Source of the DNA: Gemmatimonadota bacterium
GTDB lineage: Bacteria; Gemmatimonadota; Gemmatimonadetes; Gemmatimonadales; GWC2-71-9
Direction: 5' to 3'
NCBI GenBank assembly: GCA_033763675.1
Contig: JANRJZ010000178.1
Coordinates: 1-63,543, forward strand
Length of the DNA stretch: 63,543 bases
Shown: positions 25,392 through 48,986 of the stretch, in pieces
How positions within the stretch are numbered: position 1 is the first letter of the stretch
How the letters are laid out: every line of letters begins with the position of its first letter
Program-made: the position numbers and the translations under genes
Notes under the pieces: model-generated
Told to the model about the DNA's origin: nothing
What the model saw: only the letters and a program-made list of their open reading frames with translations
Database searches by the model: none

Positions 25392-25483
25392 GGGGCGGGA
25401 AATGTAATGCGCGGCGGTCGGGCGGGGATGGTGCGGCGTTGTGCGACCCCGACCCGGGGCCGGGCATCTTCCCGGGCGTTCGG

Positions 25484-27469: not shown

Positions 27470-27612
27470 GGGGCATCGGTCCTCCTCCCGCGCAGGGCGG
27501 GAGGGCGTACAGGGGGGTTGAGAGAGTAGCGCCGCCGCGGCCCCGGCGCACCGGTACCCATCCGCCTCGCCCCGCACACGATCCGGCCACGAGTGGCGCG
27601 ATCCTGTCTGGA

Positions 27613-28614: not shown

Positions 28615-28643
28615 CATCACGCACCACGAAAGGACTTGATCCG

Positions 28644-29102: not shown

Positions 29103-29124
29103 ACCCGGTCCCGGACCCATCGCC

Positions 29125-30422: not shown

Positions 30423-31187
30423 TCACACCCCGGTTAACGCCGGCTGCCGCACCGCGCCCGAGGCCCGCCGGCTGGCCCCCGGCCACGTCACATAGCCGAA
30501 CCGCCGCAGCATGGCCTCCAGCTTCCACTCCCACCCGGGTGTGTCGAGGATGACGTGAGCGTCCACCCGCAGCAGCTCGGCGCTCCAGCGGCGGAGCGTC
30601 CGGGGGTCGGTGTCCGTGAGCCAGGCCTGCTGCTCCACCGAGCCCGCGGCGTGCGACTCACTAACGCGCAATAACCGGGTGAATGCGTCCCACTCCCGGC
30701 CGCGCAGCGGGCCGAAGGCCGCAAGCCGGCGGTCGAGCGCGCTCCGGGAGCGGGGTGGCGCTACCGTCGCGGGGTCGGTGTCGGTGTCGGGGAGGGTCAG
30801 CACATCCTCGATGGCCGCCCGCAGCTCCCGCGGCAAGCCCCGCGTGGCGCAATAGCCGAGGAGGTCGGTGCCGAGCGGCTGCGGACGGCTGCGGATGGCC
30901 TGGAACAGCCGTTCCGTCTCTCCCTCGAAGCTGCCCACCAGCGCGGCGGCGCCGCGCGGCAGGTGGGGCAGCGCCCTGGCGAGATCGGCCGGGGGAATCT
31001 TCTCCTCCACGAGCACCACCACCGCGCACCAAAGGGCGGCTCGGAGCGACTCGGCCACCGGCGCTGGGTGCCGGGCCGCGCGGCGGAGGTCCATGACCAC
31101 GGCATCCCCGAGGGAGGGGAGGACGCCAGGCTGCCAGGGTACCAGCGTGCGCGAGACCGCGCAGAGGGTGCGGAGGGGGTGGGGCAT
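30423..31187 (-). CDS. 254-aa HTH-like putative regulator, module A copy 2
   Basis: Paralog of 26705-27469 (TDPRTLRRWSAELL...PGWEWKLEAMLRRFG). It has the same orientation relative to its module. Confidence 0.6.
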   Translation of the reverse strand: MPHPLRTLCAVSRTLVPWQPGVLPSLGDAVVMDLRRAARHPAPVAESLRAALWCAVVVLVEEKIPPADLARALPHLPRGAAALVGSFEGETERLFQAIRSRPQPLGTDLLGYCATRGLPRELRAAIEDVLTLPDTDTDPATVAPPRSRSALDRRLAAFGPLRGREWDAFTRLLRVSESHAAGSVEQQAWLTDTDPRTLRRWSAELLRVDAHVILDTPGWEWKLEAMLRRFGYVTWPGASRRASGAVRQPALTGV

Positions 31188-31597
31188 GGGGTGCCAGATG
31201 GTACGGTGCAGGGGGTGAAGGCAAGCTAGCGGGTCAGAGTGGGTCCCGCCAGCGAGTGCTACGGCCAGCTCGGCGCCTCAAGCGGAAGCGCCGAAGTCAT
31301 CTTGCTCGCCTCGCCGGGGTGCGTCGCGGATGGCACAGTGCAGGTGGAGGATCAACCAATTGTCAAATGAGCCGGACGGTCTTGCTCACGGTAGGTGGCT
31401 GAGTCCAGAGTACAGGAATCGCGCAGGGACGCGTGATTCGTGTATGGCGTGAAAGGCTGGGCGCATCCATGCTGTGTGCGGACGGCCGGAATCGGAGCGG
31501 ATGTTGGCCAGTCGCTCCAGCGGCCTCCGGCACCGCATAGCGCCCGACTTAGGCCATGCGATCACGATCACCAGCAGGATGGTTCGTGCGCTACCTG

Positions 31598-32554
31598 ATG
31601 CCATGCACGGCCGTGGTGCTTGCCACCTGGTCTTGTTCCGATGCGGAGTCGCACCCCCCCAAGCTTGATCTTGTGGAGCGTGGGCGACTCACCCTGCCCG
31701 CCGGCTTCATTGCATCAGGTGTCTCGCAAAGCCAGACCGGTGCCGTCGTTGCATGGTCTAGCGTCGCCCCAGAAGTGCTAGTCTGGAGAAGTACTGCGGA
31801 GTCGCTTGCCATGGGCAGGCGGGCAGGGGTAACCGTCGAGGCAGACTACATAGGTGACACTCTTCGTTCAGTGGATGAGCTCGGTCAGGTCTGGGTCTCC
31901 GCGCCTATCGGGACCAACGCGGAACGAGTGGCGCGCATACCCATTCGAGCCAGCGAGCGCGTACTCGCCGCCCAGCCAAGCGCCGGCTTCTGGGTCGTCG
32001 CGCTCCAGCGGCGTGGTCGCAGCGCGGACGTTCAGCTCGCCTTCTGGCGGCCACCTATGGACAGCCTCAGTAGGACACCAACGACGATCAGCACGAGCGC
32101 GGCCGGGATGGTCTGGCTGGGACCGGCTGGGACTGCATCAGGGCTGGTGTCCGTCTCCTCGCTCCCGGACGTGGCGTACCGTGCGAAGCCTGAGGTTCCG
32201 ACTCTTGATCGCCTCGACTTGGATGTGCCGGGACAATTCCGGGCGGTGAATCAGCCGTTCGCGCTGCGATTTGCCGGCATGCCTCTTGTGCCAATAGCGA
32301 CCGGATACATCCGAGTCATCGCTGATCTCCGCAGCGATCGGCGCACCATCGTGCGGTATGACTCAGCGTTCGCGGTTCGCGCATGTGCTCCGATCGATGC
32401 GCCATGGTCTATCGTGGCGGCGACTCCCTCTGGCGGAAGCCTGGTGGCACTGGCCGGCGGGGATCCCCAGCACCTCATCGTATACGAAGTTCAGGAGTCC
32501 CCTGGGTCAAGGCAGGAAGTCACTTCAACTCACGAGAATCGAGGTTGCGAATGA
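31598..32554 (+). CDS. ~320-aa hypothetical lipoprotein, module A copy 2
   Basis: I chose the start at MPCTAVVLATWSC (lipobox-like). Paralog of 27613-28614. Confidence 0.6.
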   Translation: MPCTAVVLATWSCSDAESHPPKLDLVERGRLTLPAGFIASGVSQSQTGAVVAWSSVAPEVLVWRSTAESLAMGRRAGVTVEADYIGDTLRSVDELGQVWVSAPIGTNAERVARIPIRASERVLAAQPSAGFWVVALQRRGRSADVQLAFWRPPMDSLSRTPTTISTSAAGMVWLGPAGTASGLVSVSSLPDVAYRAKPEVPTLDRLDLDVPGQFRAVNQPFALRFAGMPLVPIATGYIRVIADLRSDRRTIVRYDSAFAVRACAPIDAPWSIVAATPSGGSLVALAGGDPQHLIVYEVQESPGSRQEVTSTHENRGCE

Positions 32555-32979
32555 GAGGACTCACTGGCGCCGTATTGACAGCGCTCGCGACAATCGTCGG
32601 CCTGAGCTATCCTTCAAGCACTCCCCTCACCGCGGAGGAGGCGACGCTCTGCCGAATCTGCGAACCCGGCGGTGGGGGCGGCGTCACCGGCCCGAATGAG
32701 GGGTGGAACTGCGCCTATTCCTCCCCCGGGTACAAGGGCTGCACAATCGCGGGTGGAATGTGTTCGAACTATGTCTGGGCACACTGCGGCGTCGCCTCAC
32801 TTCAGGTGATCCCTGTTGGTCTTGACGGGACACTGATCTGGGTCGCGGCTGCCGATGCTCCTCCCATGCAGCCGGCGTCGGACGGCTACACGAGACTCTG
32901 CGATGGAGCGATCGTCGCACGTGGGCCGCACCACGCGGTCGAGGTGGCGTGGGAAACCCCCAGCCAGATTCGGATCTAG
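32551..32979 (+). CDS. Secreted 7-Cys protein (142 aa), module A copy 2
   Basis: ATGA overlap with the upstream gene. Motifs: N-terminal hydrophobic segment, CRICEPGGGGG, EGWNC, KGC, GMC, AHC, LCDGAIVAR. Paralog of 28644-29102. Confidence 0.65.
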   Translation: MRGLTGAVLTALATIVGLSYPSSTPLTAEEATLCRICEPGGGGGVTGPNEGWNCAYSSPGYKGCTIAGGMCSNYVWAHCGVASLQVIPVGLDGTLIWVAAADAPPMQPASDGYTRLCDGAIVARGPHHAVEVAWETPSQIRI

Positions 32980-32998
32980 CGCCGGAAAGCTCCCTGAA

Positions 32999-34189
32999 AT
33001 GCTGCGAAGCAGGAACTTCCTTCCTTGGATGGCTGCCCTGGCGGGCGGTGGGCTACTCTCGCCAGGACAGCCACCCCGCGCCTTTCCCGCACCCGAGTGG
33101 AGGCTGGGGAGAGCCACGGTCATCGTACCCCGGGACGGCCCTGATGCCATCCAGCGGTTCGGGCCCATGGTCATCTCGGCAGAGGGTGCGATCTACGTGG
33201 CGGATCTGGCAGAGGCTCGGATTGGTGTGTTTGACTCCCTCGGGCGCCGAATGACCTGGATCGGACGGCGAGGGCGCGGGCCCGGAGAGTTCCTTGATAT
33301 CCGGTCACTGGGATTCAGCGGGGACAGCCTCTGGGTCTACGATCCAGCCCAACTTCGCATCACGTTCTGGAGTCTCACCGGCAAGCTCCGCACGTCAGTT
33401 TCACAAGACCGCTTCACCCATGGCAGGGTCGCGAGCGACTACCGTGTCCATGGACTCATGAAGGGAGGCGCCGCGCTTGTCGCCCAGACTCGCCGGCCAC
33501 CAACGGCTCCTGACCGCGGGGTGGACCCCCTGGTGTTTGAACTGATTCACGGCGCGAATGGCACCCCAGATACGCTGCTGGTTGCCGACATGTCCCATGA
33601 CTTGGCGTACCTCTGGGTGGCGGCCGGCCCGGTTGGCACACAGTACCAGCCATTTCGCGATGGGCCGCTCTCCGGCCCAAGCCCGGAGGGCGATGTCCAC
33701 GTGGTCGTCCACAGAGAGGCTCCTCGCCGCGGCCAATCAGGGCAGATCAGGGTTCTCAGAACCACATTCCCGGATCGCCGAGTTTCACGACAGACGATCG
33801 AGTTCACCCCGTCCCGCGTCCCTCCTGGCACCGTGGATTCCCTGCTCCAAAGCTTCGCCGGACACCTGGTGGCGATGCGGATCTACCCAAACACACAAGC
33901 GGCAATCAGGGAACTGCGGAGACGTGTTTTCCTCCCTGGCTGGTATCCCCCCATCTCGGATGCACGATTGGATCGCGAGGGGCGTCTGTGGCTGGCTGAT
34001 CCCGCGATCAGCGATCGGTCGGGCAGGCAGCCAACACGCTGGAGCGTGTACGCAGTGGACGGTCGCCTTCTTGGTGTGGTGTCCCTGCCTGCGCAGACAG
34101 TCCTGCTCACTGCATATCGAAAGAACCTGTTCGTCTTGCAGGCCGACTCGGAAGAGCGGGACGCCCTGGTGCGATTCCAAATTGAGTAG
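32999..34189 (+). CDS. Beta-propeller-like paralog family protein (copy 5), module A copy 2
   Basis: I chose the start at MLRSRNFLPWMAALAGGG. GRRGRGPGEF motif. The C-terminus is family-like (LFVLQADSEERDALVRFQIE). Confidence 0.7.
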   Translation: MLRSRNFLPWMAALAGGGLLSPGQPPRAFPAPEWRLGRATVIVPRDGPDAIQRFGPMVISAEGAIYVADLAEARIGVFDSLGRRMTWIGRRGRGPGEFLDIRSLGFSGDSLWVYDPAQLRITFWSLTGKLRTSVSQDRFTHGRVASDYRVHGLMKGGAALVAQTRRPPTAPDRGVDPLVFELIHGANGTPDTLLVADMSHDLAYLWVAAGPVGTQYQPFRDGPLSGPSPEGDVHVVVHREAPRRGQSGQIRVLRTTFPDRRVSRQTIEFTPSRVPPGTVDSLLQSFAGHLVAMRIYPNTQAAIRELRRRVFLPGWYPPISDARLDREGRLWLADPAISDRSGRQPTRWSVYAVDGRLLGVVSLPAQTVLLTAYRKNLFVLQADSEERDALVRFQIE

Positions 34190-38600: not shown

Positions 38601-38759
38601 CTCGCGGCCGGGGTCATCGGCGGCTCCATCACCGCGACGCTGGTGACCTTCTTCCTGCTGCCCACCGCCTACGCCATGGTGGAGCAGCGCGCCGAGCGGC
38701 GGGCCGCGGAACTCGTGGTTGGGCCATCGCCCAATCGCCCAATCGCCCAATCGCCGTGA
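35622..38759 (+). CDS. RND efflux permease (AcrB/MdtB-like), first of a tandem pair
   Basis: 1045 aa with 12-TM AcrB architecture: N-terminal AAVRRPVTTIAATLALVLLG, the LGGLALGVGLLVDNAIVV motif, and duplicated halves. GTGA overlap with the adaptor gene. Confidence 0.9.
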   Translation: MSIAAAAVRRPVTTIAATLALVLLGAVSLGRLPVALLPDVTLPVLTIRTIYPGAAATEASRFVAEPVEEAIAATPGLVEVRSVSRNGEVTTTARFAWGTDMAATVLAVRERLDNARSRLPETAERPTLLTSDPGQRPIAVLGVSGTGELRSTALVAEQVLARRLEQLDGVASVAVTGVPEDEIRVELDPARLRTLGLTPDDVVQAIQAANVSAPGGTIRRGQFRFSVRALTELRRIEEFADIPVGPSARRSSVRLRDIGTVSLATAEPRTLTRLDGGPGIGLVVYKDAGANTVAVTRDLEAAIAQLAREFPAFSLRLVAAQARFVNDALSNLTQEIVIGGALSLLVILLFLRDWRSALAIGLIVPLSVLVSLTALQLLGVTINVLSLGGLALGVGLLVDNAIVVAEASGRLRETGIPRAQAARDAADQVMGPLIAGTLTTVLVFGPIVFVRGLAAALFRDLSLAVVTSLADALVLALTLMPVMLAGRRDGSAARRLGDSAPRPSRPAAEPSSRLTAFGHRLAESYERGMMWCLDHPRAVFLSAIAATAVAVVLTLRLPREILPQVDEGVAIATLRLPEGTAIEETVRQAARLESAARELGAQGLYTRVGSATDEELVAGAEPGGANFAQLLIPVRTGLPAARFAEALRQKIPDLAQGSLAIDLAGQSEFGSLIGREGRLMRVEVSAPTVTEAARFADSVQHALRAIPELSDVRDAYAGTQPVVELGLERERLALRGITVDQVASAIAGGLSGVEASELRETDRRTTIRVRYAGAASEDLQTALAATVDGIPVGQLVTVKEVRDPVEVVRVDQRPVQVVEAAVERGGTARAVSSIQDALGRLKAPAGLTWEIAGADIEQRRTMQELTVVAVLSVALMFLVLAGEFASFTTPLLVMLTVPLAGVGGIVVLWLTGQSLNAVSLIGMVVMIGLADNDAVVKLDAIRRFRAQGHSVRDAVLLGGRQRLRAIAMTSLTTIVGVLPLVFGWGSGGELYQPLAAGVIGGSITATLVTFFLLPTAYAMVEQRAERRAAELVVGPSPNRPIAQSP
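37089..37158. repeat. Inverted pair of octamer arrays (4x GGCTCGGC-type, 6-nt spacer, 4x GCCGAGCC-type) inside the RND CDS
   Basis: ggctcggc ggctcggc gactcggc gactcggc accgcg gccgagcc gtccagcc gccgagcc gtcgagcc. It translates as SAARRLGDSAPRPSRPAAEPSSR, in the TM6-TM7 cytoplasmic linker. Confidence 0.9.
38720..38755. repeat. CGCCCAAT octamer array (about 4 units) forming the last codons of RND-1, immediately before the RND-2 start
   Basis: gggccat cgcccaat cgcccaat cgcccaat cgcc, then GTGA (start/stop overlap). It translates as GPSPNRPIAQSP. Confidence 0.9.
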
Positions 38760-41700
38760 TTACCTGGGCCTCCCGCCGCCCCTCCGTCATCTGGGCCACC
38801 GCCGGCGCGCTGCTCCTCGCCGGCTGGATCTCCTTCACCCGGCTGCCCTTCGCCACCCGCCCTACGGTGGAGCTCCCCCGCCTCACCGTCTCGATGAGCT
38901 GGCCCGGCGCCGCCGCCGAGCTGGTGGAGACCTACCTGGGGAGTCCGATCGAGGCCGCGGTGCAGTCGGTGCGTGGGGTCAAGAAGATCGAGAGCGAGTC
39001 GGGGGAGGGGTACACCCGGCTCGACGTGGAGCTGGAACCCACCGCCAACGTGCAGCTCGCGCGGCTCGGCGTGCTGGAGCGGCTGGAGCTGCTCCGCGCC
39101 GAGTTCCCCCCAGGCGCGTCCGGACTCGAGGTGAGCAACTACGTCCCCGAGGGACTGGATGAGGAGCCGCTCATCAGCTACACGGTGTACGGGCCGTACA
39201 CCGCGGGGACGCTGCAGGACCTGGTGGACCGGCTGGTGGAGCCGCGGCTTGCGGCGGTGGAAGGGGTCTCCGGGGTGAGCGCCATGGGCGGCGCGCTGGT
39301 CGGGGTGGCGGTGGCCTACCAGCCGGAGCGGCTGCGGCAGCTCGGTGTGTCTCCCACGGCGCTGCTCACCGCCATGAACGGCGCCCGGGTGGTGGAGGCG
39401 CTGGGCGTGCAGCTGACGGGATCCACCGAGCGGCGGGTGGTGCTCCGGGAGACGCCAACGGGCCTGGAGGACCTGGCGGCGCTGCTGGTGCCGGGGCCGG
39501 GAGGCCGCGTGTACCGGCTGGACGAGCTGGCGACCATCCGGCGCGAGGAAGACAACCAGGGCCGGCTCTATCGAGTGAATGGGGAGTCCGCGGGGCTGCT
39601 GCAGGTGGCGCGGCTTCCCGGTGCCGACGCTATCCGGACCGCCCGGAGCATCCGCGCCACCCTGAACGACCTGGGCGGCCGGCTTCCCGCAGGTGTCCGG
39701 TTCCAGGTGCTCTCGGATGAGAGTCTCCGGCTGGGCGACCAGCTCTCCGACCTGGTGCGGCGCGGGCTCATCGCCTTTGCCGCCGTGCTGCTGGTGCTCG
39801 CGGTGACGCTGCAGGCGCCGCTCGCGGTCACCTATGTCATGGCGAGCGCGGCGGTGGCCATCGCCGGCACCACGCTCGGCCTGTACCTCCTCGGCATTCC
39901 CGCCAATCTGCTCACGCTGGCGGGGCTCAGCATGGGGATCGGTATCCTGGTGCAGAACGGGCTGGTAGTGGTGAACCGGTTCCGCACGGTGCCGGACACC
40001 GCCGAGGCGCGTGCGCTCGCCGGCTGGCGCATCACGCCGGCGGTGCTCGGTTCGACGCTCACCACCGCCGTGGTGCTGCTGCCGTTTCTCTATCTCCAGG
40101 GCGATGCGCGGGCGGCGTTCACCCCCTTCGCGGTGGCCTTCGCGCTGGCGCTGGGGTGGTCGGTCGTCACCTCGGTGGTGATGCTCCCCGCCATCGGCAG
40201 AGGGCACGGGATGCACGTGGTGCGCTGGCGCCGGTCGGAGCGGGCCTATCGCCGGATGGTGATCGGGCTGCTGCGCTGGCGCTGGGTGACGATCGCCGCC
40301 ACCGTGGCGCTCCTCGCCGGACTGGGCTGGGTGTTCGCGGTGAAGGTGCCCAAGTCGAGCTTCAGCGGCTGGTGGGGACAGCGCACCACCCTCTCCGCCC
40401 GGGTGGATTTCCCCAGCGGCTCCGATCCCACCATGGTGGATGCGGCGCTGCGGGAGTTCGAGCGGATCGCGGCGGGGCAGCCGGGGGTGGAGCGGGTGGA
40501 GGCGCAGGGGATGCCGGATGGCGGCTTCGTGCGGGTGGTGTTCGAGGACGACGCGGCCCGGACCGCGCTTCCCTACCAGATGCAGGATGATTTTACCGCC
40601 CGCGCCACCTTCATCGGTGGTGCCTCGGTGAGCGTGGCGGGGTATGGGCCGGGGTTCGCGTCGGGTGGCTCGGTGGGCTCGCTGCAGAGCTTCCGGATCA
40701 AGATCCTGGGCTACTCGTTCGCCGGGGTAGAGCAGCTCGCGCTCGACCTCAAGGCTCGGCTCGAGGGGATCTCGCGGGTGCGCACGGTGGACATCAACGC
40801 CGCCGGCTTCTGGTTCGGCGGGGAGAAGGCGCGGGACGTCACCCTCACCCCGGACCGGGACCGGCTGGCGAGCTTCGGCCTCACCAGCAGCGACTTCGCC
40901 GGCATCGTGGGGCGGGAGGTCGGCGGCGCGGTGGGCCGCCAGCGGCTGCTGCTGGGAGATGAAGATCTCTGGCTCTCCCTCAAGACCCAGGGGAGCCGGG
41001 AGCGGACGCTGGATCAGTTGCGCGAGGCGCTGCTGCCCAATGACGCCAACGCCCCAGTGCGCGTAGGTGATGTGGCGACGGTCTCCGAGCGTGAGGCGCT
41101 CTCCCGTATCAGCCGCGAGGACCAGCAGTACGTGCGGATCCTGAGCTACGACTTCCGCGGGCCCGCCAAGCTCGCCAACCGGACCCACGAGGCCTTCATG
41201 CGCTCGATCAGCGTCCCCGCCGGCTACACCGTGAGCGACGAGTACTTCGGCTGGGTGGACGACCAGAGCCAGAAGGGACTCTGGCTGGTCTTCGCGGTGG
41301 GGCTGGCGCTGGTGCTGCTCACCGTGGCCATGGTCTTCGATTCCGCCTGGGGCGCCGCGATGGTCTTCCTCAGCCTGCCGATCGCGCTGGCCGGCGTGGT
41401 GGTGGCCTTCTGGGCCACCGGCACCGCGTTCACCCGGGAAGCCGCGGTAGGGGTGATCCTGGTGATCGGCCTCGCGGTGAACCAGGCGATCCTGCTGGTG
41501 GATGGCATCCTGGCTCGCCAGGCGGCGACGCCGTTGGCGCGCACGGCCGTGCGCGCCAACGCCATCGTCGCCGCCTGCCGGGACCGGGCCGGCATGATCA
41601 CCCTCGTCACCCTGACCACCCTCGCCAGCCTGATCCCGCTGGCCGTCGGGACCAGCACCACCGACCTCTTCGGCGCCATCGCGCTGGCCACCGCCGGCGG

Positions 41701-41761
41701 CACGGTGGCCGGCACCATCGGCGCGATGTTCCTGCTGCCGCCGATGCTGGTGAGGCGGTAG
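38756..41761 (+). CDS. RND efflux permease (AcrB/MdtC-like), second of the tandem pair
   Basis: 1001 aa with AcrB-family architecture (GLSMGIGILVQNGLVVV, duplicated halves). GTG start overlapping the RND-1 stop. Confidence 0.9.
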   Translation: MITWASRRPSVIWATAGALLLAGWISFTRLPFATRPTVELPRLTVSMSWPGAAAELVETYLGSPIEAAVQSVRGVKKIESESGEGYTRLDVELEPTANVQLARLGVLERLELLRAEFPPGASGLEVSNYVPEGLDEEPLISYTVYGPYTAGTLQDLVDRLVEPRLAAVEGVSGVSAMGGALVGVAVAYQPERLRQLGVSPTALLTAMNGARVVEALGVQLTGSTERRVVLRETPTGLEDLAALLVPGPGGRVYRLDELATIRREEDNQGRLYRVNGESAGLLQVARLPGADAIRTARSIRATLNDLGGRLPAGVRFQVLSDESLRLGDQLSDLVRRGLIAFAAVLLVLAVTLQAPLAVTYVMASAAVAIAGTTLGLYLLGIPANLLTLAGLSMGIGILVQNGLVVVNRFRTVPDTAEARALAGWRITPAVLGSTLTTAVVLLPFLYLQGDARAAFTPFAVAFALALGWSVVTSVVMLPAIGRGHGMHVVRWRRSERAYRRMVIGLLRWRWVTIAATVALLAGLGWVFAVKVPKSSFSGWWGQRTTLSARVDFPSGSDPTMVDAALREFERIAAGQPGVERVEAQGMPDGGFVRVVFEDDAARTALPYQMQDDFTARATFIGGASVSVAGYGPGFASGGSVGSLQSFRIKILGYSFAGVEQLALDLKARLEGISRVRTVDINAAGFWFGGEKARDVTLTPDRDRLASFGLTSSDFAGIVGREVGGAVGRQRLLLGDEDLWLSLKTQGSRERTLDQLREALLPNDANAPVRVGDVATVSEREALSRISREDQQYVRILSYDFRGPAKLANRTHEAFMRSISVPAGYTVSDEYFGWVDDQSQKGLWLVFAVGLALVLLTVAMVFDSAWGAAMVFLSLPIALAGVVVAFWATGTAFTREAAVGVILVIGLAVNQAILLVDGILARQAATPLARTAVRANAIVAACRDRAGMITLVTLTTLASLIPLAVGTSTTDLFGAIALATAGGTVAGTIGAMFLLPPMLVRR

Positions 41762-41932
41762 GCGGGGAATCGCCTGGCAACTCCGCAGCACCACCTTCGC
41801 GCCATGGACCGGCCTGTGAGTATCATCCGGGCAGCAACCAGTGATGCGGGCACACTGACGGCGAACAGGGATGCGACGATACACATTGCTGACCACACAG
41901 CGAGCGCTCGTGTGCGGGAACCTGGGCGCGGT

Positions 41933-43060
41933 GTGACTCAGAACAGGCTCGTCGGGATCCTGGGATCCGTGGGGCTTCTGGCCGGCTGCTCTTCAGATCT
42001 GACTGACCGCGCCCGAGCGTTGACGAGCGACCCCCACGTCCACCCCAACCCCGCCTACGTGGACCAGTCGCTCAAGCCTGCCTGGTCGGTAGGCATGGGC
42101 GACCCACCCGTCATCCTTGGATTCTCGCTGGGGCGGACCCTGGCCCCGCGCGGGGACGTCGAGGGAGTCGGGGATGATTCCATCGGCCGGATCGCCGACG
42201 GGCTCATCCTCCCTGCCGGCGAGATCCTCCTTGTAGATGATGCTCTGCAGGTGCTTTGGCGGTATGGCCCGGACGGTGCCCAACGACAACTCATCGGCCG
42301 TCCCGGACAGGGCCCCGGCGAGTTTCGAGGTCCACGATCCGCCACGATGGTGCGGGGCGCCCTGGCCGTCCTCGACGCCGGGATCGGCCTGCAGTTCTTC
42401 GTCCCCGCCGGGGATGGATTCACGTTCTCGAGAGGGGTCCGTCTCACGCTCGAAGCGGATGACCTCTGTGTCCTAGATTCAGCGCTGGTGGTGCAGGGAA
42501 CTGCTGCAGGTCTTCCTATCCTTCACCTCTTCTCGCAGCAGGGCGAATTGAACCGCTCCTTCGGTCAGATCTACAACTCCCCAAATATCAGCATTAACGA
42601 GGCCATCGGAAGCACCGGTCGCCTGGTGTGTGACGGCGACAACAAGCTGGTGATCTATGCACCGCGAGGCGCCCTGGGAGAGGTCCGTGCCTACCGGACT
42701 GACGGCACACCCGTGTGGCGCACCATCTTTGCCAACTTCAGGGCGAACCGTATGGAGGACCATCCGGGAGGCTGGAGGGTCACGGTCTCCCCAGATGGTG
42801 TCCACAGCCTCCATGCACTCACCGCTATCCCTGGACGGGGGCTGCTGGTCCAGTGGACCTACCGTACCTATGACGAGATCGTGGCCCGCGCCTCTTACGG
42901 CACCATCCTGAGCTACCTGCTGAATCCGGTGACGGGTGAGCCGATCGGGCCCGATACGACCCTTCCCCCAATCCTCGCGGCGACCGACTCGACCGTGCTC
43001 GTCGCCTATGAGGATCCTGAGCCTCGCTTCGAGGTTCGCGCCCTGCTGCCGCGGCGGTAA
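41933..43060 (+). CDS. Beta-propeller-like lipoprotein (copy 6)
   Basis: The GTG at 41933 gives VTQNRLVGILGSVGLLAGC (lipobox). GRPGQGPGEF motif. The C-terminal ~60 aa are nearly identical at protein level to copy 8. Confidence 0.7.
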   Translation: MTQNRLVGILGSVGLLAGCSSDLTDRARALTSDPHVHPNPAYVDQSLKPAWSVGMGDPPVILGFSLGRTLAPRGDVEGVGDDSIGRIADGLILPAGEILLVDDALQVLWRYGPDGAQRQLIGRPGQGPGEFRGPRSATMVRGALAVLDAGIGLQFFVPAGDGFTFSRGVRLTLEADDLCVLDSALVVQGTAAGLPILHLFSQQGELNRSFGQIYNSPNISINEAIGSTGRLVCDGDNKLVIYAPRGALGEVRAYRTDGTPVWRTIFANFRANRMEDHPGGWRVTVSPDGVHSLHALTAIPGRGLLVQWTYRTYDEIVARASYGTILSYLLNPVTGEPIGPDTTLPPILAATDSTVLVAYEDPEPRFEVRALLPRR

Positions 43061-43081: not shown

Positions 43082-43186
43082 GCCGTCGGGCTCCTGCGGC
43101 GCCCTCGCGCTGGCCCCCGCGGCGGCACCGTGGCCGGCACCATCGGTGCGATGTTCCTGCTGCCGCCGATGCTGGTAAGGCGGTAG
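43082..43186 (+). pseudogene. Degenerate copy of the last ~100 nt of the RND-2 gene (includes its stop codon)
   Basis: Aligns by eye with 41642-41761 (gccgtcggg ... ggccggcaccatcggtgcgatgttcctgctgccgccgatgctggtaaggcggtag), with a few substitutions and a short deletion. Confidence 0.8.
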
Positions 43187-43236
43187 GGCGGGAAGGGCGG
43201 TAGGGGGCAGTAAGGAGCTGTAAGGGTGAGTGGTTA
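43174..43236. repeat. G-rich 8-nt periodic array (GGCGGTAG / GGCGGGAA / GGGGCAGTAA... family)
   Basis: ggtaaggc ggtagggc gggaaggg cggtaggg ggcagtaa ggagctgt aagggtga. The same arrangement occurs at 45663-45722. Confidence 0.7.
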
Positions 43237-43408
43237 GTCGGCTTGCGCCCAAACCCAAGTCAGGGCTGCTGTACGAATCTTGGCACTCGTGACAACATGG
43301 CGGGGGGTGATCCTAACTTCTAACTTGCTGGTGGCTAGCAACTCTGATTTTACTGGCTCAAGGCTCCCTGACTCGAAGGCCGCTCGCGGCGCCACCGGGG
43401 AGGTAGGG

Positions 43409-44014
43409 ATGCCCCTGCTCAAGTCTCTGGCCCGGCTCGTCGGGTTCCTGCTGCTCGGCTCCGCGTCCTTCGCCATTGCCCACACCCTTGCCAGCGACGC
43501 TCGGGCGCAGCGAGTCGCAGCGACGCGGCATGCTGATTCCCTCGCAACGCGCGATGGTCCGAGCCTCCTCGTTGTCTACATTGGCTCGTCGCGGTGCCCG
43601 TGGTGCCGGGATCCGAAGCTCCCGGGTCTCCTGGAGGCAGTCCATGGATGGGCGATGGCCTACGCCGAGTCTCATGGCATGGGTTATCGCATGGTAGGTC
43701 TGGCGGTTGACCGGCAGGCAGAGTCGGGGCTTGACCACCTTCGCCGAGTCGGGCCGATGTTCAGGGAGGTATCAAGTGGAGGGGAGTGGCAGGGGCTTGC
43801 TGTAGGACCCCTCTTCTCGGGCGCTGGTGCCTCCCGGCCGGGGACGCCACAAGTTCTTGTGATGGCAAGGGATATCCGGCGGGTGGAGTCGGATAGCGGT
43901 CCCAGCACCATTGAGATAACCGGGCAGCGTGTCCTGTTGCGCCTTGCGGGCCTGGACGAATTAGAGCGCTGGGTGCAGGTGAACGCCAAGCCGCGAACGG
44001 GCCGTACGATGTAG
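43409..44014 (+). CDS. Membrane-anchored thioredoxin-fold-like protein with a CPWC motif, module B copy 1
   Basis: 201 aa. N-terminal anchor LARLVGFLLLGSASFAIA. LLVVYIGSSRCPWCRD resembles a Trx-fold CxxC active site preceded by a beta-strand. GGGGAGG Shine-Dalgarno. Paralog at 45891-46523. Confidence 0.6.
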   Translation: MPLLKSLARLVGFLLLGSASFAIAHTLASDARAQRVAATRHADSLATRDGPSLLVVYIGSSRCPWCRDPKLPGLLEAVHGWAMAYAESHGMGYRMVGLAVDRQAESGLDHLRRVGPMFREVSSGGEWQGLAVGPLFSGAGASRPGTPQVLVMARDIRRVESDSGPSTIEITGQRVLLRLAGLDELERWVQVNAKPRTGRTM

Positions 44015-44099
44015 CGCAGGTCGCAAGGACCGACCGGTCCGGGATGCACCCGGGTGATGCCGTCTATGCAGTTATGCTCAATCATTCAGGAGGTGGACG

Positions 44100-44318
44100 A
44101 TGTGGACCAGACTTGAAATTCCAACGGGCCGTGTAGCGGTTGCGATTGCACTGGTCGGTGCATTGCTCGGAGTCATCGTGGGCGCCAGTCCCGCGCGTGC
44201 GGAGGGGCAATGCCCCAACATGAAGTGTGAGAACAAGCAGTGTCTTCCAGGTGGCAATCGCTGGTGCACGCACCACAGCGGGGAGGATGGCGGCTACTGC
44301 TCCACTACGGCCTGCTGA
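44100..44318 (+). CDS. Secreted 6-Cys mini-protein precursor (72 aa), module B copy 1
   Basis: Strong AGGAGG Shine-Dalgarno 6 nt upstream. Signal-like MWTRLEIPTGRVAVAIALVGALLGVIVGASPARA, then EGQCPNMKCENKQCLPGGNRWCTHHSGEDGGYCSTTAC. The paralog at 46644-46856 has the same Cys spacing. Confidence 0.7.
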   Translation: MWTRLEIPTGRVAVAIALVGALLGVIVGASPARAEGQCPNMKCENKQCLPGGNRWCTHHSGEDGGYCSTTAC

Positions 44319-44359
44319 TCCCCGGGGGTACTGGGGTCGTGACCCGCAACCACGCGCAA

Positions 44360-45484
44360 ATGCATCGCGCTGTGATCGGGCTGGTAGGGCTCGCCACCGC
44401 GCTGACATGTTCGCCGGTGCCCGACGGCGGGGAGAGTCGACCCGGGGGGACGGCCGTCCTGCACCACCCCGAGGCTCGTTGGGTGGATACCTCGATTGGA
44501 GTGGGTTTCACGATTCCCCTGGATGCTCCGGGCGATCCGGGAGCCCTCCGACTTGGTGCAGGTGCTCAGGGAGGGTGGGGCACTGAGGCCGACGCCCCGG
44601 AGCACGCAATCGGCCGGATTTACAAGGTGCTCCTCCTGCCAGATCGAGGCGTGGTCATAGTGGATGATCGGTCACAGGTCGTCCGCGTGTATGCCTCTTC
44701 GGGGAGACCACAACAAGTCGTCGGTCGCGCGGGTCAGGGCCCTGGGGAGTTCCGCCGACCCCTCTCCGCCGCTATCGATGGAATGGGTCGTCTCTACGTG
44801 TCGGATACCAATCGGCGCATTCAAGTGTTTGTACCCTCCGGAGGGGAGTATCACTACGAGCGGACACTGACCCTGGAGGTGGAGGCCCAGGACATGTGCT
44901 TCCTCGGAGATAATCTCGTTGTGCAGGGCTTGTCGCTCGCTCGGCAGGCTCTCATCCATATCTTCGACGAGGACGGGAAGCTGGTCCGGTCATTCGGTGC
45001 ACTCTACCGTTCACCCAGCCCCGACATGAACGAGGAGTTCGGTCTGGGTCGTATCTCATGTGACGGGAAACGAGGCCTCATCTACTATGCCCCCCGAATC
45101 GGGATCGGAGAGGTTCGTGCGTTCGAGGCCAGTGGCACACCGAGCTGGCGCACCGCGTTCTCGGGTTTCCGCTCCAATCCGTGGGTTTCCGAGAACCGGA
45201 CCCTCACCACCCGGCTCTCTCGTAACGGGAATCACACCCTGATTACCCTCGTGCTCGTGGAAGGGCATGGGCTCCTGGTCCAGTGGACCTTTCGAACCTG
45301 GCAGCAATTGATGGACGAGGACAGTTTCGGCTCCACGGTAAGCTTCCTGCTAGATCCCGCCACGGGGGAGCCTCTGGCACTGGGTAACGGCCTTCCGCTC
45401 ATACCGGCCATCGGTGCCGCACGAGCGGTTGCGGTGTACGAAGATCCGGTCCCCCGCTTCGAGCTCCGGGCAATGCTGCCATAG
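44360..45484 (+). CDS. Beta-propeller-like lipoprotein (copy 7), module B copy 1
   Basis: I chose the start at MHRAVIGLVGLATALTC (lipobox). The track ORF starts at 44240, overlapping the peptide gene, and that extension is probably not translated. GRAGQGPGEF motif. Confidence 0.68.
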   Translation: MHRAVIGLVGLATALTCSPVPDGGESRPGGTAVLHHPEARWVDTSIGVGFTIPLDAPGDPGALRLGAGAQGGWGTEADAPEHAIGRIYKVLLLPDRGVVIVDDRSQVVRVYASSGRPQQVVGRAGQGPGEFRRPLSAAIDGMGRLYVSDTNRRIQVFVPSGGEYHYERTLTLEVEAQDMCFLGDNLVVQGLSLARQALIHIFDEDGKLVRSFGALYRSPSPDMNEEFGLGRISCDGKRGLIYYAPRIGIGEVRAFEASGTPSWRTAFSGFRSNPWVSENRTLTTRLSRNGNHTLITLVLVEGHGLLVQWTFRTWQQLMDEDSFGSTVSFLLDPATGEPLALGNGLPLIPAIGAARAVAVYEDPVPRFELRAMLP

Positions 45485-45525
45485 CGGTAGCGACGGTAAC
45501 GACGGTACCGTCGCTACTAGTCGTC
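45483..45525. repeat. CGACGGTA-family array with a central 14-nt perfect palindrome (cgacggtaccgtcg)
   Basis: agcggtag cgacggta acgacggta ccgtcgct actagtcg. Read directly, immediately after the propeller stop. Confidence 0.75.
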
Positions 45526-45556
45526 CGCTTCAACCTTGATAACCGTCGCCGTGAGC

Positions 45557-45674
45557 GCCGTCGGGCTCCTACACCGACCTCTTCGGCGCCATCGCGCTGG
45601 CCACCGCCGGCGGCACGGTGGCCGGCACCATCGGCGCGATGTTCCTGCTGCCGCCGATGCTGGTGAGGCGGTAG
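45557..45674 (+). pseudogene. Copy of the last ~100 nt of the RND-2 gene (includes its stop codon)
   Basis: From caccgacctcttcggcgcc to ggtgaggcggtag I count about 103 consecutive nt identical to 41659-41761. Confidence 0.9.
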
Positions 45675-45722
45675 GGCGGTAAGGCGGTAGGGGGTTGTAA
45701 GGGGCTGTAAGGGTGGGTGGTT
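45663..45722. repeat. G-rich 8-nt periodic array (GGCGGTAG / GGCGGTAA family)
   Basis: gtgaggcg gtagggcg gtaaggcg gtaggggg ttgtaagg ggctgtaa gggtgggt. Homologous to 43174-43236. Confidence 0.7.
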
Positions 45723-45890
45723 AGTTGGCTGGTGGCCAAACCCAAGGCAGGGCGGCTGTACGGATCTCGGCACTCTTGACAGCATGGGGGGGGTCCTAAC
45801 TTCTGACTTGCAATTGACTAGCAACTGTGATTTGCTGCCCCAAGGCTACCTGACCCGAAGGGCGCTCGCGGCGCCACCGGGGAGGTCTGG

Positions 45891-46523
45891 ATGCCCCCGC
45901 TCAAGTCTCTGGCCCGGCTCGCCGGGTTCCTGCTGCTCGGCTCCGTGTCCTTCGCCATTGCCCACACCCTTGCCAGCGATGCTCGGGCGGAGCGAGTCGC
46001 AGCGACGCGGCATGCTGACTCCCTTGCAACGCGCGATGGTCCGGGCCTGCTCGCCGTCTACATTGGCTCGTCGCGGTGCCCGTGGTGCCGGGACCCGAAA
46101 GTCCCGGTGCTGCTGCGGGAGATTCACGCCCGTATGATCGCCCTTGCGGACTCCATTGGAGTCGGATATCGAATGGTTGGATTGGCGGTTGACCAGCAAC
46201 CAGAGCCGGGTCTCGGCCACCTTCGTCGCGTCGGGCGCATGTTCAACGAAATGTCCAGCGGTGGTGAGTGGCAAGGACTGGCGGTCTCCCCCTTGCTCTG
46301 GGGTGCATTGTCAGGTGAGCCCGGCACGCCGCAAGTGATCCTCCTCCGCCGAACGGTGCGACGGATGGTGCCGGACAGCGGACCGGTACGGTTCGAGATC
46401 GCGGATGAGATGGTGTTGCGGCGCTTGGTGGGGCTGAATGCCATTGAACAGTGGGTCAACGCGGGCCAGGTGCTGGGGACCGTCGGCTTCTCGCAACCAC
46501 AGGGCGTGGCTTTCTCCCAGTAG
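45891..46523 (+). CDS. Membrane-anchored thioredoxin-fold-like protein with a CPWC motif, module B copy 2
   Basis: 210 aa. The first ~70 codons are nearly identical at nucleotide level to 43409-43620, and the remainder is diverged. LLAVYIGSSRCPWCRD. Confidence 0.6.
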   Translation: MPPLKSLARLAGFLLLGSVSFAIAHTLASDARAERVAATRHADSLATRDGPGLLAVYIGSSRCPWCRDPKVPVLLREIHARMIALADSIGVGYRMVGLAVDQQPEPGLGHLRRVGRMFNEMSSGGEWQGLAVSPLLWGALSGEPGTPQVILLRRTVRRMVPDSGPVRFEIADEMVLRRLVGLNAIEQWVNAGQVLGTVGFSQPQGVAFSQ

Positions 46524-46643
46524 TGCCTCGGAGCTGACCCGGGCGTTGATGGCCCGGAAGGTTCGGGCGACACCAACCAAGTTCCCATGCAGTTGTTCGC
46601 CTCGTAAGTTGCGCTCGACGCAGTCTACCACGGAGGTAGGGCT

Positions 46644-46856
46644 ATGTGGACCCGACTTGGGATGTCCTCGGTGAAGGTCATGGTATTGGCAGTCCTCGTG
46701 GGCGGTGGGCTGGGCGCTCTCGTCGGAGCATTGCCACTCGCGGCCGAGGAGACGTGCCCGCAACTTCAGTGCCTCTACGGGTACTGCCAGCCAGGTGGTG
46801 GTGCCACCTTTTGCTGGCACGTCGGCAGTGAGGGATGCATTCTCCAGGTCTGCTGA
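46644..46856 (+). CDS. Secreted 6-Cys mini-protein precursor (70 aa), module B copy 2
   Basis: GGAGG Shine-Dalgarno 7 nt upstream. MWTRLGMSSVKVMVLAVLVGGGLGALVGALPLAA, then EETCPQLQCLYGYCQPGGGATFCWHVGSEGCILQVC. Confidence 0.7.
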   Translation: MWTRLGMSSVKVMVLAVLVGGGLGALVGALPLAAEETCPQLQCLYGYCQPGGGATFCWHVGSEGCILQVC

Positions 46857-46862
46857 GGGCGA

Positions 46863-48002
46863 TTGGTGCGCCCGCCACTGCTACGCTGTTGGCTGAGCTG
46901 CGTCCTGTTCGGTGGTTCGATTGCGTGTGCCGATGGTAGCACGGGACGCGCGGACAATGCCGGATCAGGCCGGATGCATCCAGTCGAGCGGTATGTCGCC
47001 AGCGATATGCCTCCGTCTTTCAGCACGGCGCTGGACGGGGCCAACACGACTCTCCCTTTCCGCTTGGGGACACAGGCCATCGCGGCATCCCCAACCGGCG
47101 GGGCGGGCGCCGAGTCACCCATCGGCCGCATCGCGAGGGGTGCGCTCCTGGCCTCGGGCGACATCGTGGTGCTCGACGACGGCGCCATGGTGGCCCACTT
47201 GTATGGCCCCGATGGCACTCCGAAAGCCCTCATTGGAAAGCCAGGCTCGGGTCCCGGCGAGTTTCGACGGCTGATCGCCCTCACGGAGGCGGCCGATGGC
47301 GGGCTGCTGATCTCAGACGCCGACCGGGTCGTGCAGCGCTACTCCCCGGCGGGGCCCGGATATCGATTCGTCGGGGACATGCGGCTACCCGTGGACGCCG
47401 AGGACATGTGCCGCCTCGGCGCTAACCTGGTCGTCCATGGACTGACCGCCGCCGATCCGAGATTGCTTCGAGTCTACCGTGACTCAGGCGGCCAGGTTAG
47501 TACCTTCGGCGAGTACTATCGTTCACCAAGCCCGCTGGTGAACGAGGTGCTGGGCAAGGGTAGGATCCTCTGCGAACCGACCCGAGACCTGGTGGTGTTC
47601 GCCCCCAATAGCGCCGTGAGTGAGGCACGGGCCTTTGGTGCCGACGGCACCCCGGTGTGGCGTGTCGTGTTTCGGGGAAGCCGAGCCGACCGGATCGAGG
47701 AAACTGAAGGCGGTTACAGCTGGAAGTTCTCCACCGATGGCCGACACCAGCTGCTGAGTCTCGTGCGACTCCCTGCTCGAGGAATCCTGATCCAGTGGAC
47801 CTTCCTCACCCGTGAGGAGGCCGTGGCCCGAGCCTCCTACGGTACGATCCTCAGCTTCCTGCTCGATCCGGTAACGGGTGAGCCTATCGGGCCCGATACG
47901 ACTCTCCCGCCAATCCTCGCGGCGACCGACTCGACCGTTCTCATCGGATACGAGGATCCGGAGCCCCGCTTCGAAGTGCGGGCTCTTGAACCGCGACGCT
48001 AA
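46863..48002 (+). CDS. Beta-propeller-like lipoprotein (copy 8), module B copy 2
   Basis: TTG/GTG start giving LVRPPLLRCWLSCVLFGGSIAC (lipobox-like). GKPGSGPGEF motif. The C-terminus ARASYGTILSFLLDPVTGEPIGPDTTLPPILAATDSTVLIGYEDPEPRFEVRALEPRR is close to copy 6. Confidence 0.7.
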   Translation: MVRPPLLRCWLSCVLFGGSIACADGSTGRADNAGSGRMHPVERYVASDMPPSFSTALDGANTTLPFRLGTQAIAASPTGGAGAESPIGRIARGALLASGDIVVLDDGAMVAHLYGPDGTPKALIGKPGSGPGEFRRLIALTEAADGGLLISDADRVVQRYSPAGPGYRFVGDMRLPVDAEDMCRLGANLVVHGLTAADPRLLRVYRDSGGQVSTFGEYYRSPSPLVNEVLGKGRILCEPTRDLVVFAPNSAVSEARAFGADGTPVWRVVFRGSRADRIEETEGGYSWKFSTDGRHQLLSLVRLPARGILIQWTFLTREEAVARASYGTILSFLLDPVTGEPIGPDTTLPPILAATDSTVLIGYEDPEPRFEVRALEPRR

Positions 48003-48059: not shown

Positions 48060-48986
48060 CTAGTTATCCACCTCCACCTTGATCGCCGTCGCGGTAATCG
48101 CCAGCGGGCTGGCAGAGGTCACCGTCCCGCGCCCTTCGGCCCGCACGGCCTGACCCGCGCCTACCGCCGCCTCGACGCTCGCCAGGGTGAAGAGATCCCC
48201 CAGCGGATCGAGCGTGACGCTTCCCACCGTGATCACCGCGCCACCGGCCAGGGTGATGGTCCCCGCGGCCGCGTCGGCCGCCGTCACCACGCCCTCGAAC
48301 TCCACGCTGCCCGTCGGGATCCCGCCGCCCGGATTGGTGAGCGACAGCTCGGTGTTGCTGGTGATCTCGACCGGGATGTTGAACACCCGCAGGATCGCGA
48401 GCGGCGGCGGGCTGGCCACGGTCTCCAGGTTGTCGCTGTCCACGTACACCTCGATCTTGGGCTCGTCGGTCTGGTCCTCGAGCCGCAGGTCATTGGCGGT
48501 GAAGCTGGCATCGGTCGGGGCCTGAGCCGACCCGGGCGCGCTGCGCCGGGCCTCGATGGGCGGATGCTGGCCGGCGCCGAGCGCCGCCGTGATCGCCGCT
48601 TCCCACTCGCTCCGGCTCACCCGGCTGTCACTCGGGGTGCGGAACCGGGTGCCGCTGCCGTAGCTCACCACCATCCCGCCCAGGTCCAGCGTGACCGTCC
48701 CGGCCACCGGATCGATCGCGGCCACGGTGCTCACGAACTTCTCTTCCTGGTCATCGGCCTCGACGTGCACCTCGCGCGCCTCGAGCCCGCCGGGGAGGAG
48801 CTTGATCTCGATCCGGGTGGTCCAGGTGCCGAGGGTGCTGTCGAACTGGCTCAGGCTGATGACCTGGCCGAGCTGGGTGGGCGGGTTGTTGCCGCCACTG
48901 GGGCCGGTCGAATCGCCGCAGGCGGCGAGCAGGGCGGACCCGGCCAGCGCCAGGGTCGTCAGGGTGTGCTTCGCGAGCTTGTACAT
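48060..48986 (-). CDS. Lipoprotein, hypothetical (DUF5666-like repeats possible)
   Basis: I chose the start at MYKLAKHTLTTLALAGSALLAAC (lipobox), with GGAGGAACG upstream. Repeated G.VT.VD...GT.TL.G..V motifs. The longer track ORF (to 49451) is an Arg/Pro-rich artefact extension. Confidence 0.65.
   Translation of the reverse strand: MYKLAKHTLTTLALAGSALLAACGDSTGPSGGNNPPTQLGQVISLSQFDSTLGTWTTRIEIKLLPGGLEAREVHVEADDQEEKFVSTVAAIDPVAGTVTLDLGGMVVSYGSGTRFRTPSDSRVSRSEWEAAITAALGAGQHPPIEARRSAPGSAQAPTDASFTANDLRLEDQTDEPKIEVYVDSDNLETVASPPPLAILRVFNIPVEITSNTELSLTNPGGGIPTGSVEFEGVVTAADAAAGTITLAGGAVITVGSVTLDPLGDLFTLASVEAAVGAGQAVRAEGRGTVTSASPLAITATAIKVEVDN

Follow-up and report, generated by a model that had tools for sequence, protein, structure and literature searches.

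A predicted thioredoxin-fold protein and a probable NHL-type propeller lipoprotein encoded beside six-cysteine mini-proteins in Gemmatimonadota and other bacteria: a possible extracytoplasmic foldase unit

What do three neighbouring genes accomplish together if they encode a thioredoxin (Trx)-like protein, a secreted cysteine-rich peptide and a β-propeller lipoprotein? The question is raised by contig JANRJZ010000178.1 of a Gemmatimonadota bacterium (lineage GWC2-71-9, assembly GCA_033763675.1), whose stretch of 63,543 nt analysed here (hereafter the window) carries two such cassettes in tandem on its plus strand, at 43409-45484 and 45891-48002. Each consists of A, a protein of ~200 aa with a CPWC motif; B, an open reading frame (ORF) of ~70 aa with a putative signal peptide followed by six cysteines (Cys6); and C, a probable propeller lipoprotein of ~375 aa. 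We propose that A and C constitute a membrane-proximal extracytoplasmic thiol-disulfide exchange unit with the B mini-proteins as its dedicated clients, a reading to which we assign a probability of roughly 0.4, and that the module as a whole probably serves to produce, in the extracytoplasmic space, small peptides locked by disulfides.

According to the ORF list of the window, the first cassette comprises A1 (43409-44014, +; 201 aa), an N-terminally anchored or exported protein containing VVYIGSSRCPWCRD, followed by the precursor of the secreted mini-protein B1 (44100-44318, +; 72 aa), whose 38-aa mature part is EGQCPNMKCENKQCLPGGNRWCTHHSGEDGGYCSTTAC, and by C1 (44360-45484, +), a probable lipoprotein (…LATALTC/S) whose reading frame is open from 44240 and likely starts with the ATG at 44360. 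The second comprises A2 (45891-46523, +; 210 aa), the precursor of B2 (46644-46856, +; 70 aa) and C2 (46863-48002, +; 379 aa), likewise a probable lipoprotein (…GGSIAC/A; E 1e-167 with our C-family hidden Markov model, HMM). The paralogous products are 71% (A1/A2, E 1e-95), 42% (B1/B2, E 2e-16) and 37% (C1/C2, E 9e-84) identical, which is far beyond chance; thus the tandem duplication of a three-gene cassette, claimed in an earlier note made from the DNA letters alone, is real and borne out by ORFs, Shine-Dalgarno sites and paralogue identities. Purine-rich Shine-Dalgarno sequences precede all six genes (GGGGAGG for A1 and A2, AGGAGG at 6 nt before the ATG of B1, GGAGG for B2), and the stop codon of B2 is separated from the start of C2 by 6 nt. 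Together, these strong sites and the short B-to-C gaps, which measure 0-41 nt, indicate co-translation of B and C. A scan for promoters and terminators yielded nothing exceeding the shuffled expectation, and a tblastn search of plasmids with A1 gave no match.

To what extent does the module exist elsewhere? A word-index search with A retrieved 7 homologues only, which is an under-count of the family, since the number of clusters (at 50% identity) retrieved in a HMMER profile search for A was 1,857 at E<=1e-3, and still 1,580 and 243 when the threshold was tightened to E<=1e-10 and E<=1e-30, respectively; members listed there are ~200 aa long. Homologous loci in other genomes and metagenomes (designated by L-numbers) were collected in part by scans based on an 18-sequence sub-alignment, which sampled only A members with the motif GxAATPQV[LV]V. 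On this basis, a pattern scan of GTDB representative genomes yielded 26 loci, which belong to Longimicrobiales, Gemmatimonadaceae, Rhodothermales and Solibacteraceae, and locus L033 resides in a metagenome-assembled genome of Gemmatimonas phototrophica. The triad is therefore not peculiar to the window, as the earlier note had left to be checked, but occurs in at least three phyla: Gemmatimonadota, the Rhodothermales lineage and Acidobacteriota. Furthermore, some genomes possess several paralogous modules (L017/L025 and L021/L027).

Judged by HMMs built here, a C-family gene adjoins A in all 26 genome loci, usually immediately upstream, and B-family ORFs are found in 24 of them, there with 1-4 copies per A-C pair. 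In the 16 metagenome loci, C stands beside A wherever the upstream flank is present, with up to three B per locus, and C also lies beside A in both close and distant relatives (L001-L008, L040/41). The gene order A-B-C, by which the triad had been described, holds for the window's clade; across the family, however, the usual order is B-C-A, and the tightest link is that between A and C. Overall, 0 to 4 copies of B accompany an A-C pair, for instance two B for one C in L005, L031 and L033, and three in L053. Propeller arrays lacking A (L009, L010, L038 and L039) contained no B-type ORF; thus B tracks A, while C can stand alone. These dependencies are nested, as C can be alone, A is always found with C, and B occurs only where A is present, so that A and C form an invariant core to which a variable number of B is added. 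All-against-all clustering of the neighbourhood ORFs revealed no shared family beyond A and C, and no transporter, protease, DsbD/CcdA or radical SAM protein.

The nature of A was approached by structure prediction. The AlphaFold 2 (AF2) model of A1, computed from a 7-sequence alignment, has a predicted local distance difference test (pLDDT) score of 72.7 overall and ~90 in its core, and displays a long N-terminal helix followed by a β-α-β thioredoxin-like core. Foldseek matched it in the PDB to 3kcm, 3gl3 (DsbE), 1lu4, 1kng (CcmG), ResA, DsbE/DsbF of M. tuberculosis and Sco proteins, with E values from 5e-5 to 1e-3 and probabilities of 0.98-1.0. We predict that A folds as a TlpA/CcmG/ResA/DsbE-like thioredoxin with a TlpA-type insertion, in agreement with the Trx-like character that the CPWC motif had suggested. 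The motif is situated after strand 1, and a candidate cis-Pro loop just before the strand starting at residue 148 is formed by T146 and P147, present in 148 and 155 of 155 family representatives, respectively. By sequence, A1, A2 and three typical members gave no Pfam or NCBIfam match at E<=1, the curated Trx, Redoxin and AhpC-TSA models included; the A profile produced only chance matches to PDB sequences, and PADLOC reported nothing significant for A.

CPWC is present in both A1 and A2 but is not representative of the family. While the first cysteine is invariant in the 155 representatives, the fourth position of the motif is occupied by Ser (94 proteins), Cys (46) or Ala (15), so that the second cysteine is replaced by Ser or Ala in 70% of them, and 86 of 154 are single-Cys proteins. 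CxxC coincides with the A-B-C order of the window's clade, and CxxS/CxxA with the commoner B-C-A order. Alongside the single invariant cysteine, a His, an Arg and a Trp are conserved, and the family alignment contains neither the peroxiredoxin motif PxxxTxxC nor CC(I/V)NC nor the Sco motif CxxxC. As most members are CxxS and only the first cysteine is invariant, a DsbA-like dithiol oxidation is not the general chemistry of the A family. In enzymes of the PDI/DsbC type the N-terminal cysteine alone is sufficient for disulfide shuffling and, by analogy to these, isomerase or disulfide-shuffling activity, or mixed-disulfide chemistry, would fit A better than that of a dithiol oxidase.

C1 yielded a confident model (pLDDT 90, predicted template modelling score 0.90), whose best Foldseek matches are the NHL domains of Brat, TRIM71, TRIM2/3 and Thin (E 4e-11 to 1e-9); the exported protein BF0058 of B. 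fragilis (PDB 4raa) is also among its structural matches, with a TM-score of ~0.56, and no particular enzyme family stands out. C1 furthermore matches Pfam DUF5128 (PF17170) with 28.8 bits against a cutoff of 22.9, and NHL with 16.3 bits, below cutoff, whereas C2 and C0, an orphan propeller in the window to which we return below, have no significant Pfam match despite being 37-48% identical to C1 or to each other. Based on this model, C is an NHL/DUF5128-type six-bladed propeller with an NHL-like binding fold, NHL domains being binding modules. A lipobox is canonical in C0 (LLAG/C) and plausible in C1 (ALT/C) and C2 (SIA/C), and many homologues have a putative L-x-A/C. Like BF0058, C belongs to exported propellers that form paralogous arrays; unlike DUF5128 proteins in general, for which we know of no function, the C clade possesses its own conserved HP(T) motif N-terminal to the propeller and two conserved cysteines. 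We considered A to act mainly on this cysteine pair and rejected the idea, because the pair is conserved in the arrays lacking A as well. Those arrays comprise up to five DUF5128-type propellers arranged head to tail without A or B (L009 1-4403, L010 915-3222, L038 58-6130). Each is located near a GerE-type response regulator, with an AbiEii gene near L009 and a PIN gene near L010.

The leaders of B1 and B2 combine a basic N-terminus, a hydrophobic core and an apparent AxA-type cleavage site (ARA/E and LAA/E) three residues before the first cysteine. Cleavage there would release ~36-38 aa with six cysteines spaced C-x4-C-x4-C-x7/8-C-x10/7-C-x4-C, in accordance with the family framework C-x4-C-x(4-13)-C-x(7-10)-C-x(6-18)-C-x4-C. 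Across 22 aligned divergent homologues with a mean column identity of 27%, the six cysteines are the only invariant positions of the mature part, as expected of selection on cysteine codons. A typical B is acidic and carries the signatures CE.D.C, T.C[DN] and C.T..C, from which B1 (CPNMKC) and B2 (CPQLQC) deviate. In a six-frame translation of the window, the B-family HMM matched B1 (E 1.5e-14) and B2 only, and a crude filter for a signal peptide plus Cys6 recovered, over all six frames, B1, B2 and one other secreted Cys-rich ORF. A word-index search with the B alignment found 11 proteins, none of them named, and Pfam, NCBIfam and PADLOC gave nothing significant; a fulvocin C-related model with E 0.11 was discarded as noise. 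The ratio of nonsynonymous to synonymous substitution rates (dN/dS) is 0.11-0.39 for A, B and C wherever computable, which at the sequence level shows purifying selection on all three genes, the value for B being weakly informative, with 4 changes only relative to L003 and a saturated comparison to L007.

Several known peptide classes were compared with B. Like SCIFF/ranthipeptides (six Cys in forty-five residues) and bacterial defensin-like peptides, B is ribosomal, about 40 aa long and equipped with six cysteines. SCIFF peptides, however, depend on a radical SAM maturase and are made without a signal peptide, whereas B has one, no radical SAM enzyme is found in its neighbourhoods, and NCBIfam gave no SCIFF match; hence, this identity was rejected. 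Defensin-like peptides of the CS-alpha-beta type require CxxxC and CxC, neither of which occurs in the framework C-x4-C...C-x4-C, and EGF and LDL-A modules were dismissed for the same mismatch in cysteine spacing. In most B peptides the first residue after cleavage would be Gln or Glu, which could form an N-terminal pyroglutamate (L005-L037, e.g. L013 3266-3508 and L025 3307-3546), a trait that possibly is an artefact of hand-placed AxA sites. A role of propeller C as a plant-type glutaminyl cyclase was discarded, since Pfam gave no such match and the Gln/Glu excess depends on those hand-placed sites. A different family of small secreted Cys-rich ORFs (…FFFPCCQE…PYCCDGCC…W.C….D.C…, 8-9 Cys) precedes the triad at a distance of 2.5-4 kb in three genomes of Longimicrobiales/Gemmatimonadota (L021 758-973, -; L023 840-1079, -; L025 1881-2078, -).

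How might these components operate together? In our model, B would be exported by Sec and its signal peptide removed, whereupon the propeller lipoprotein C would bind the unfolded or misfolded peptide, and the one invariant nucleophilic cysteine of A would form and resolve mixed disulfides until the three disulfides of B are natively paired. In the window's clade, an A with a full CPWC may oxidise its client as well. The product would be a compact, mostly acidic peptide of ~35-45 aa locked by three disulfides. We infer from strict A-C linkage, the tracking of A by B, an NHL binding fold and a single nucleophilic cysteine that C binds B and that A acts on it as an isomerase; of the readings considered, this foldase model fits that combination best. 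With considerable doubt, we further suggest that the module might represent an unrecognised class of Sec-exported, disulfide-knotted ribosomal mini-proteins (C-x4-C...C...C...C-x4-C) with a dedicated foldase made of a 1-Cys TlpA-like Trx and an NHL lipoprotein.

The model is reminiscent of NHLRC2 and SOQ1, in which a TlpA-like Trx domain is fused to a six-bladed NHL propeller, with conserved residues along the cleft between the two domains, where the motif at the CxxC position is located (PMC6107167). SOQ1 has a protein client, on which its lumenal domains act through thiol chemistry (bioRxiv 10.1101/2024.11.01.621559), and bacterial NHLRC2 homologues were reported to be without conserved neighbours (PMC6107167). 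The module shares with these proteins the predicted TlpA/CcmG-like Trx fold and the NHL-type six-bladed propeller and, with the membrane-tethered SOQ1, a presumed location on the extracytoplasmic side (the lumenal one in SOQ1); by analogy, A and C could be viewed as their two-gene split counterpart. In contrast to the single chain of NHLRC2/SOQ1, A and C are separate genes in all loci; the motif is CC(I/V)NC there and C-x-x-S/C/A in A, a third, C-terminal β domain is absent here, and NHLRC2/SOQ1 have no counterpart to the co-encoded Cys6 peptides.

Several observations weigh against our model. A has no detectable sequence similarity to the Trx domains of NHLRC2/SOQ1 or to any Pfam Trx family, and the 50 best Foldseek matches of A, like those of C, include neither NHLRC2 nor SOQ1. 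Orphan propellers (C0 and the second C of L040), as well as the long arrays lacking A, demonstrate that C has an existence independent of the other two, and B was not detected at L024, where A and C are present, nor at the truncated locus L019. Moreover, the idea of an isomerase assumes a non-consecutive disulfide pairing in B, and a 1-Cys Trx fold could instead perform peroxide, sulfenate or sulfoxide chemistry.

Alternatively, B might be a secreted antibacterial or signalling peptide, C the cognate immunity protein or receptor, and A merely the foldase of B, close to the toxin- or signal-like system that the earlier note had envisaged. Such an arrangement would account for a mature B that, outside its cysteines, is far more divergent than its leader (in B1/B2 and in the family alignment), for several paralogous modules per genome, for differing cassette types at one site accompanied by recombination scars and lower GC content (see below), and for orphan propellers resembling orphan immunity genes. 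Accessory thiol-disulfide oxidoreductases are likewise known from the bacteriocin sublancin (BdbA/BdbB). In pediocin PA-1, PedC is a dedicated, membrane-anchored CxxC Trx-like helper, encoded beside the small secreted peptide whose disulfides it secures (PMC4919988). PedC/BdbA-type systems, however, combine a double-glycine leader, an ABC transporter and a small membrane immunity protein in Gram-positive hosts, whereas the present module has a Sec-type leader with an AxA site, a propeller partner and mostly CxxS proteins in diderm hosts, and lacks a conserved exporter, lysis gene or outer-membrane route. In addition, a typical acidic B (CE.D.C) differs from most membrane-active peptides, A is tied to C no less strictly than to B, and neither PADLOC nor bacteriocin families gave a significant match. 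The propeller, for which a role as receptor, immunity or processing partner had been proposed, is NHL-like, a binding fold without a specific enzyme relative. A one-to-one pairing of B and C does not hold (L005, L031, L033, L053), and the number of B per A-C pair, 0 to 4, suits clients of an A+C machine no less than strictly paired toxin/immunity or ligand/receptor couples. The lack of a conserved exporter and the acidity of a typical B weaken the bacteriocin reading, and we regard toxin/immunity or ligand/receptor pairs as an unlikely, if arguable, explanation.

A stable complex, in which B is a disulfide-knotted small subunit seated on propeller C of a periplasmic or surface binding protein, with A as assembly factor, would resemble methylamine dehydrogenase (MADH). 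There, the small light chain MauA, an exported protein with several disulfides, sits on the propeller heavy chain MauB. To obtain its six disulfides, the small subunit of MADH requires MauD, a CxxC protein with a Trx fold (bioRxiv 10.64898/2026.03.05.709764), so that the mau cluster unites the same three kinds of component. The B-C gaps of 0-41 nt, suggestive of co-translation, and the conserved acidic and Thr positions of B (CE.D.C, T.C[DN], C.T..C), suggestive of a fixed interface or a Ca2+ site, would suit a heteromer; a variable number of B per C and the existence of same-clade propellers without B would not. MauA, moreover, has ~130 aa, 12 Cys and a Trp-derived quinone (TTQ), whereas B has 6 Cys, no conserved Trp and no conserved cofactor-forming residues; MauE, MauG and other mau genes were not found in the neighbourhoods, and no homology was detected. 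The MADH heavy chain is a seven-bladed propeller, not of NHL type. We consider such a heteromer rather improbable. Even less credit is given to redox repair or sensing, whereby 1-Cys A and C would reduce sulfoxides, sulfenates or peroxides in envelope proteins with B as a Cys-rich shuttle, not a product. The single invariant cysteine of A with its conserved His, Arg and Trp is in keeping with this notion, as is SOQ1, whose lumenal Trx-NHL-C-terminal-domain part has methionine sulfoxide reductase activity, in which the Trx domain hands electrons on to a small domain with a Cys pair (bioRxiv 10.1101/2024.11.01.621559). Nevertheless, six invariant cysteines in an exported 36-aa peptide are most simply explained as three structural disulfides, no electron source of the DsbD/CcdA type is conserved nearby, and the motifs PxxxTxxC and CC(I/V)NC are missing from A. 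Finally, B as a thiol/acidic metal binder and A as a Sco-like metallochaperone could be Cu/Zn accessories of the flanking resistance-nodulation-division (RND) efflux systems; the cassette lies between two RND operons in the window and in close relatives, Sco proteins are among the Foldseek matches of A, and a neighbouring 308-aa protein shows a sub-threshold CusF match (E 0.0015). Since this context is limited to the window's clade, distant loci having unrelated neighbours, and A lacks the Sco motif CxxxC, a metal accessory seems very improbable.

The view that this is not a named system has stood: besides the silence of Pfam, NCBIfam and PADLOC, neither A nor B nor their combination is described in the literature searched for the triad, for NVEALA/DUF5128 and for Cys-rich peptides of Gemmatimonadota. 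The A and B families are without relatives in Pfam, NCBIfam or among PDB sequences, while the component folds are already known and analogies exist (NHLRC2/SOQ1, MauD/MauA/MauB, PedC). With ~1,600 clusters at 50% identity for A alone, the module makes up a sizeable part of the envelope biology of Gemmatimonadota, Rhodothermales and Acidobacteriota that has no annotation. NHLRC2 is associated with human FINCA disease, and SOQ1 belongs to plants; the gene-neighbourhood link of a mostly 1-Cys Trx fold, an NHL propeller and a presumed peptide client makes the function of Trx-NHL pairs approachable experimentally in bacteria. If the proposed foldase class is real, it would be the first such pair with an identifiable, genetically linked natural client and a bacterial model for NHLRC2-type biochemistry. 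If B are toxins, signals or metal binders instead, they would provide compact scaffolds with three disulfides from a new source that is easy to mine.

How, then, did the window acquire two cassettes? Upstream of them lies an AcrB-type RND pump gene (38756-41761, +), directly 3' of which is C0 (41933-43060, +; ORF 41804-43060, likely start GTG 41933), an orphan propeller lipoprotein with lipobox LLAGC and a GQGPGEF motif but without its own A or B. C0 is 48% identical to C2 and 40% to C1, scores E 5e-158 with the C-family HMM, and its last 190 bp are 85% identical in DNA to the end of C2. In a blastn self-comparison, the 3' end of the pump gene (41659-41765) proved to be the source of a ~100-bp repeat before each cassette, namely two non-coding remnants on the plus strand at 43094-43192 (92%, to 41668-41766) and 45572-45679 (99% over 108 bp). 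The earlier note omitted both C0 and these remnants. Positions 43094-43791 and 45581-46273 furthermore share 85% DNA identity, covering the first ~380 nt of A1 and A2, and the GC content across 42-48 kb is 0.64-0.65 as compared to 0.70-0.74 in the flanks.

In the close relatives GCA_044221505, GCA_016794805 and ENA assemblies, the corresponding region reads RND-RND-A-B-C, followed by a 308-aa gene on the minus strand and by genes for an outer membrane efflux protein (OEP), a membrane fusion protein (MFP) and an RND pump, with a single type-2 cassette. Thus, the content of the site behind the RND gene varies: A-B2-C2 in L001-4, A-B1-C1 in L007 (an RND 3' end followed by a type-1 cassette with the B1 ortholog), A-B3-C3 plus an extra type-1-like C in L040/41, and C0 with both cassettes in the window. 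L008 displays A, a third B type and then C, and L006 and the distant L005 (29% identity) are arranged as (B-)C-A-B. A2 is 85% identical in amino acids to its ortholog P0002 of related genomes, and the B2 ortholog in L001-L004 is 97% identical. Relative to the L003 ortholog (927-1559), the synonymous divergence (dS) of A2 is 0.79, compared with 0.04 for the adjacent B2 and 0.11 for C2, and A1 resembles A2 (71%) more than it does its counterpart in L007 (~50%), a type-1 locus, which together indicate gene conversion between the A copies; A2 is probably a mosaic that arose by conversion with A1. The RND 3' remnants look like marks of recombination for which the end of the pump gene served as an anchor. 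From these comparisons, the module of the window is best described as a strain-variable island, in which recombination has multiplied the genes to two complete cassettes and one orphan propeller, and such an island with orphan propellers suggests ongoing diversification.

Between the second cassette and the OEP gene, the 308-aa exported protein mentioned above (48060-48986, -) is kept in all close relatives, and its CusF-like match hints at metal handling by the flanking RND systems. Further upstream, the window contains an older tandem cassette of four genes lacking a Trx-like gene (26705-30309 and 30423-34189). Its first gene is divergent on the minus strand (26705-27577 and 30423-31187; 30% identity) with a weak helix-turn-helix hint; the second encodes a ~332-aa protein (27613-28614 and 31556-32554; 23%); the third a secreted protein of ~150 aa that has a Cys6 region in its N-terminal part and the motif C[DE]GAIVAR in its C-terminal part (28644-29102 and 32551-32979); and the fourth a GxGPGEF propeller (29125-30309 and 32855-34189; 25%). 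Two propeller-like paralogues with 26% mutual identity, one of them with GQGPGEY, precede it (24303-25496, -, and 25439-26680, +), amounting to at least seven propeller-family genes in 24 kb. A homologue of the Cys-rich protein of this older cassette is also located near the propeller arrays of L010 (7911-8345), and another secreted Cys-rich ORF occurs in L009 (9170-9568).

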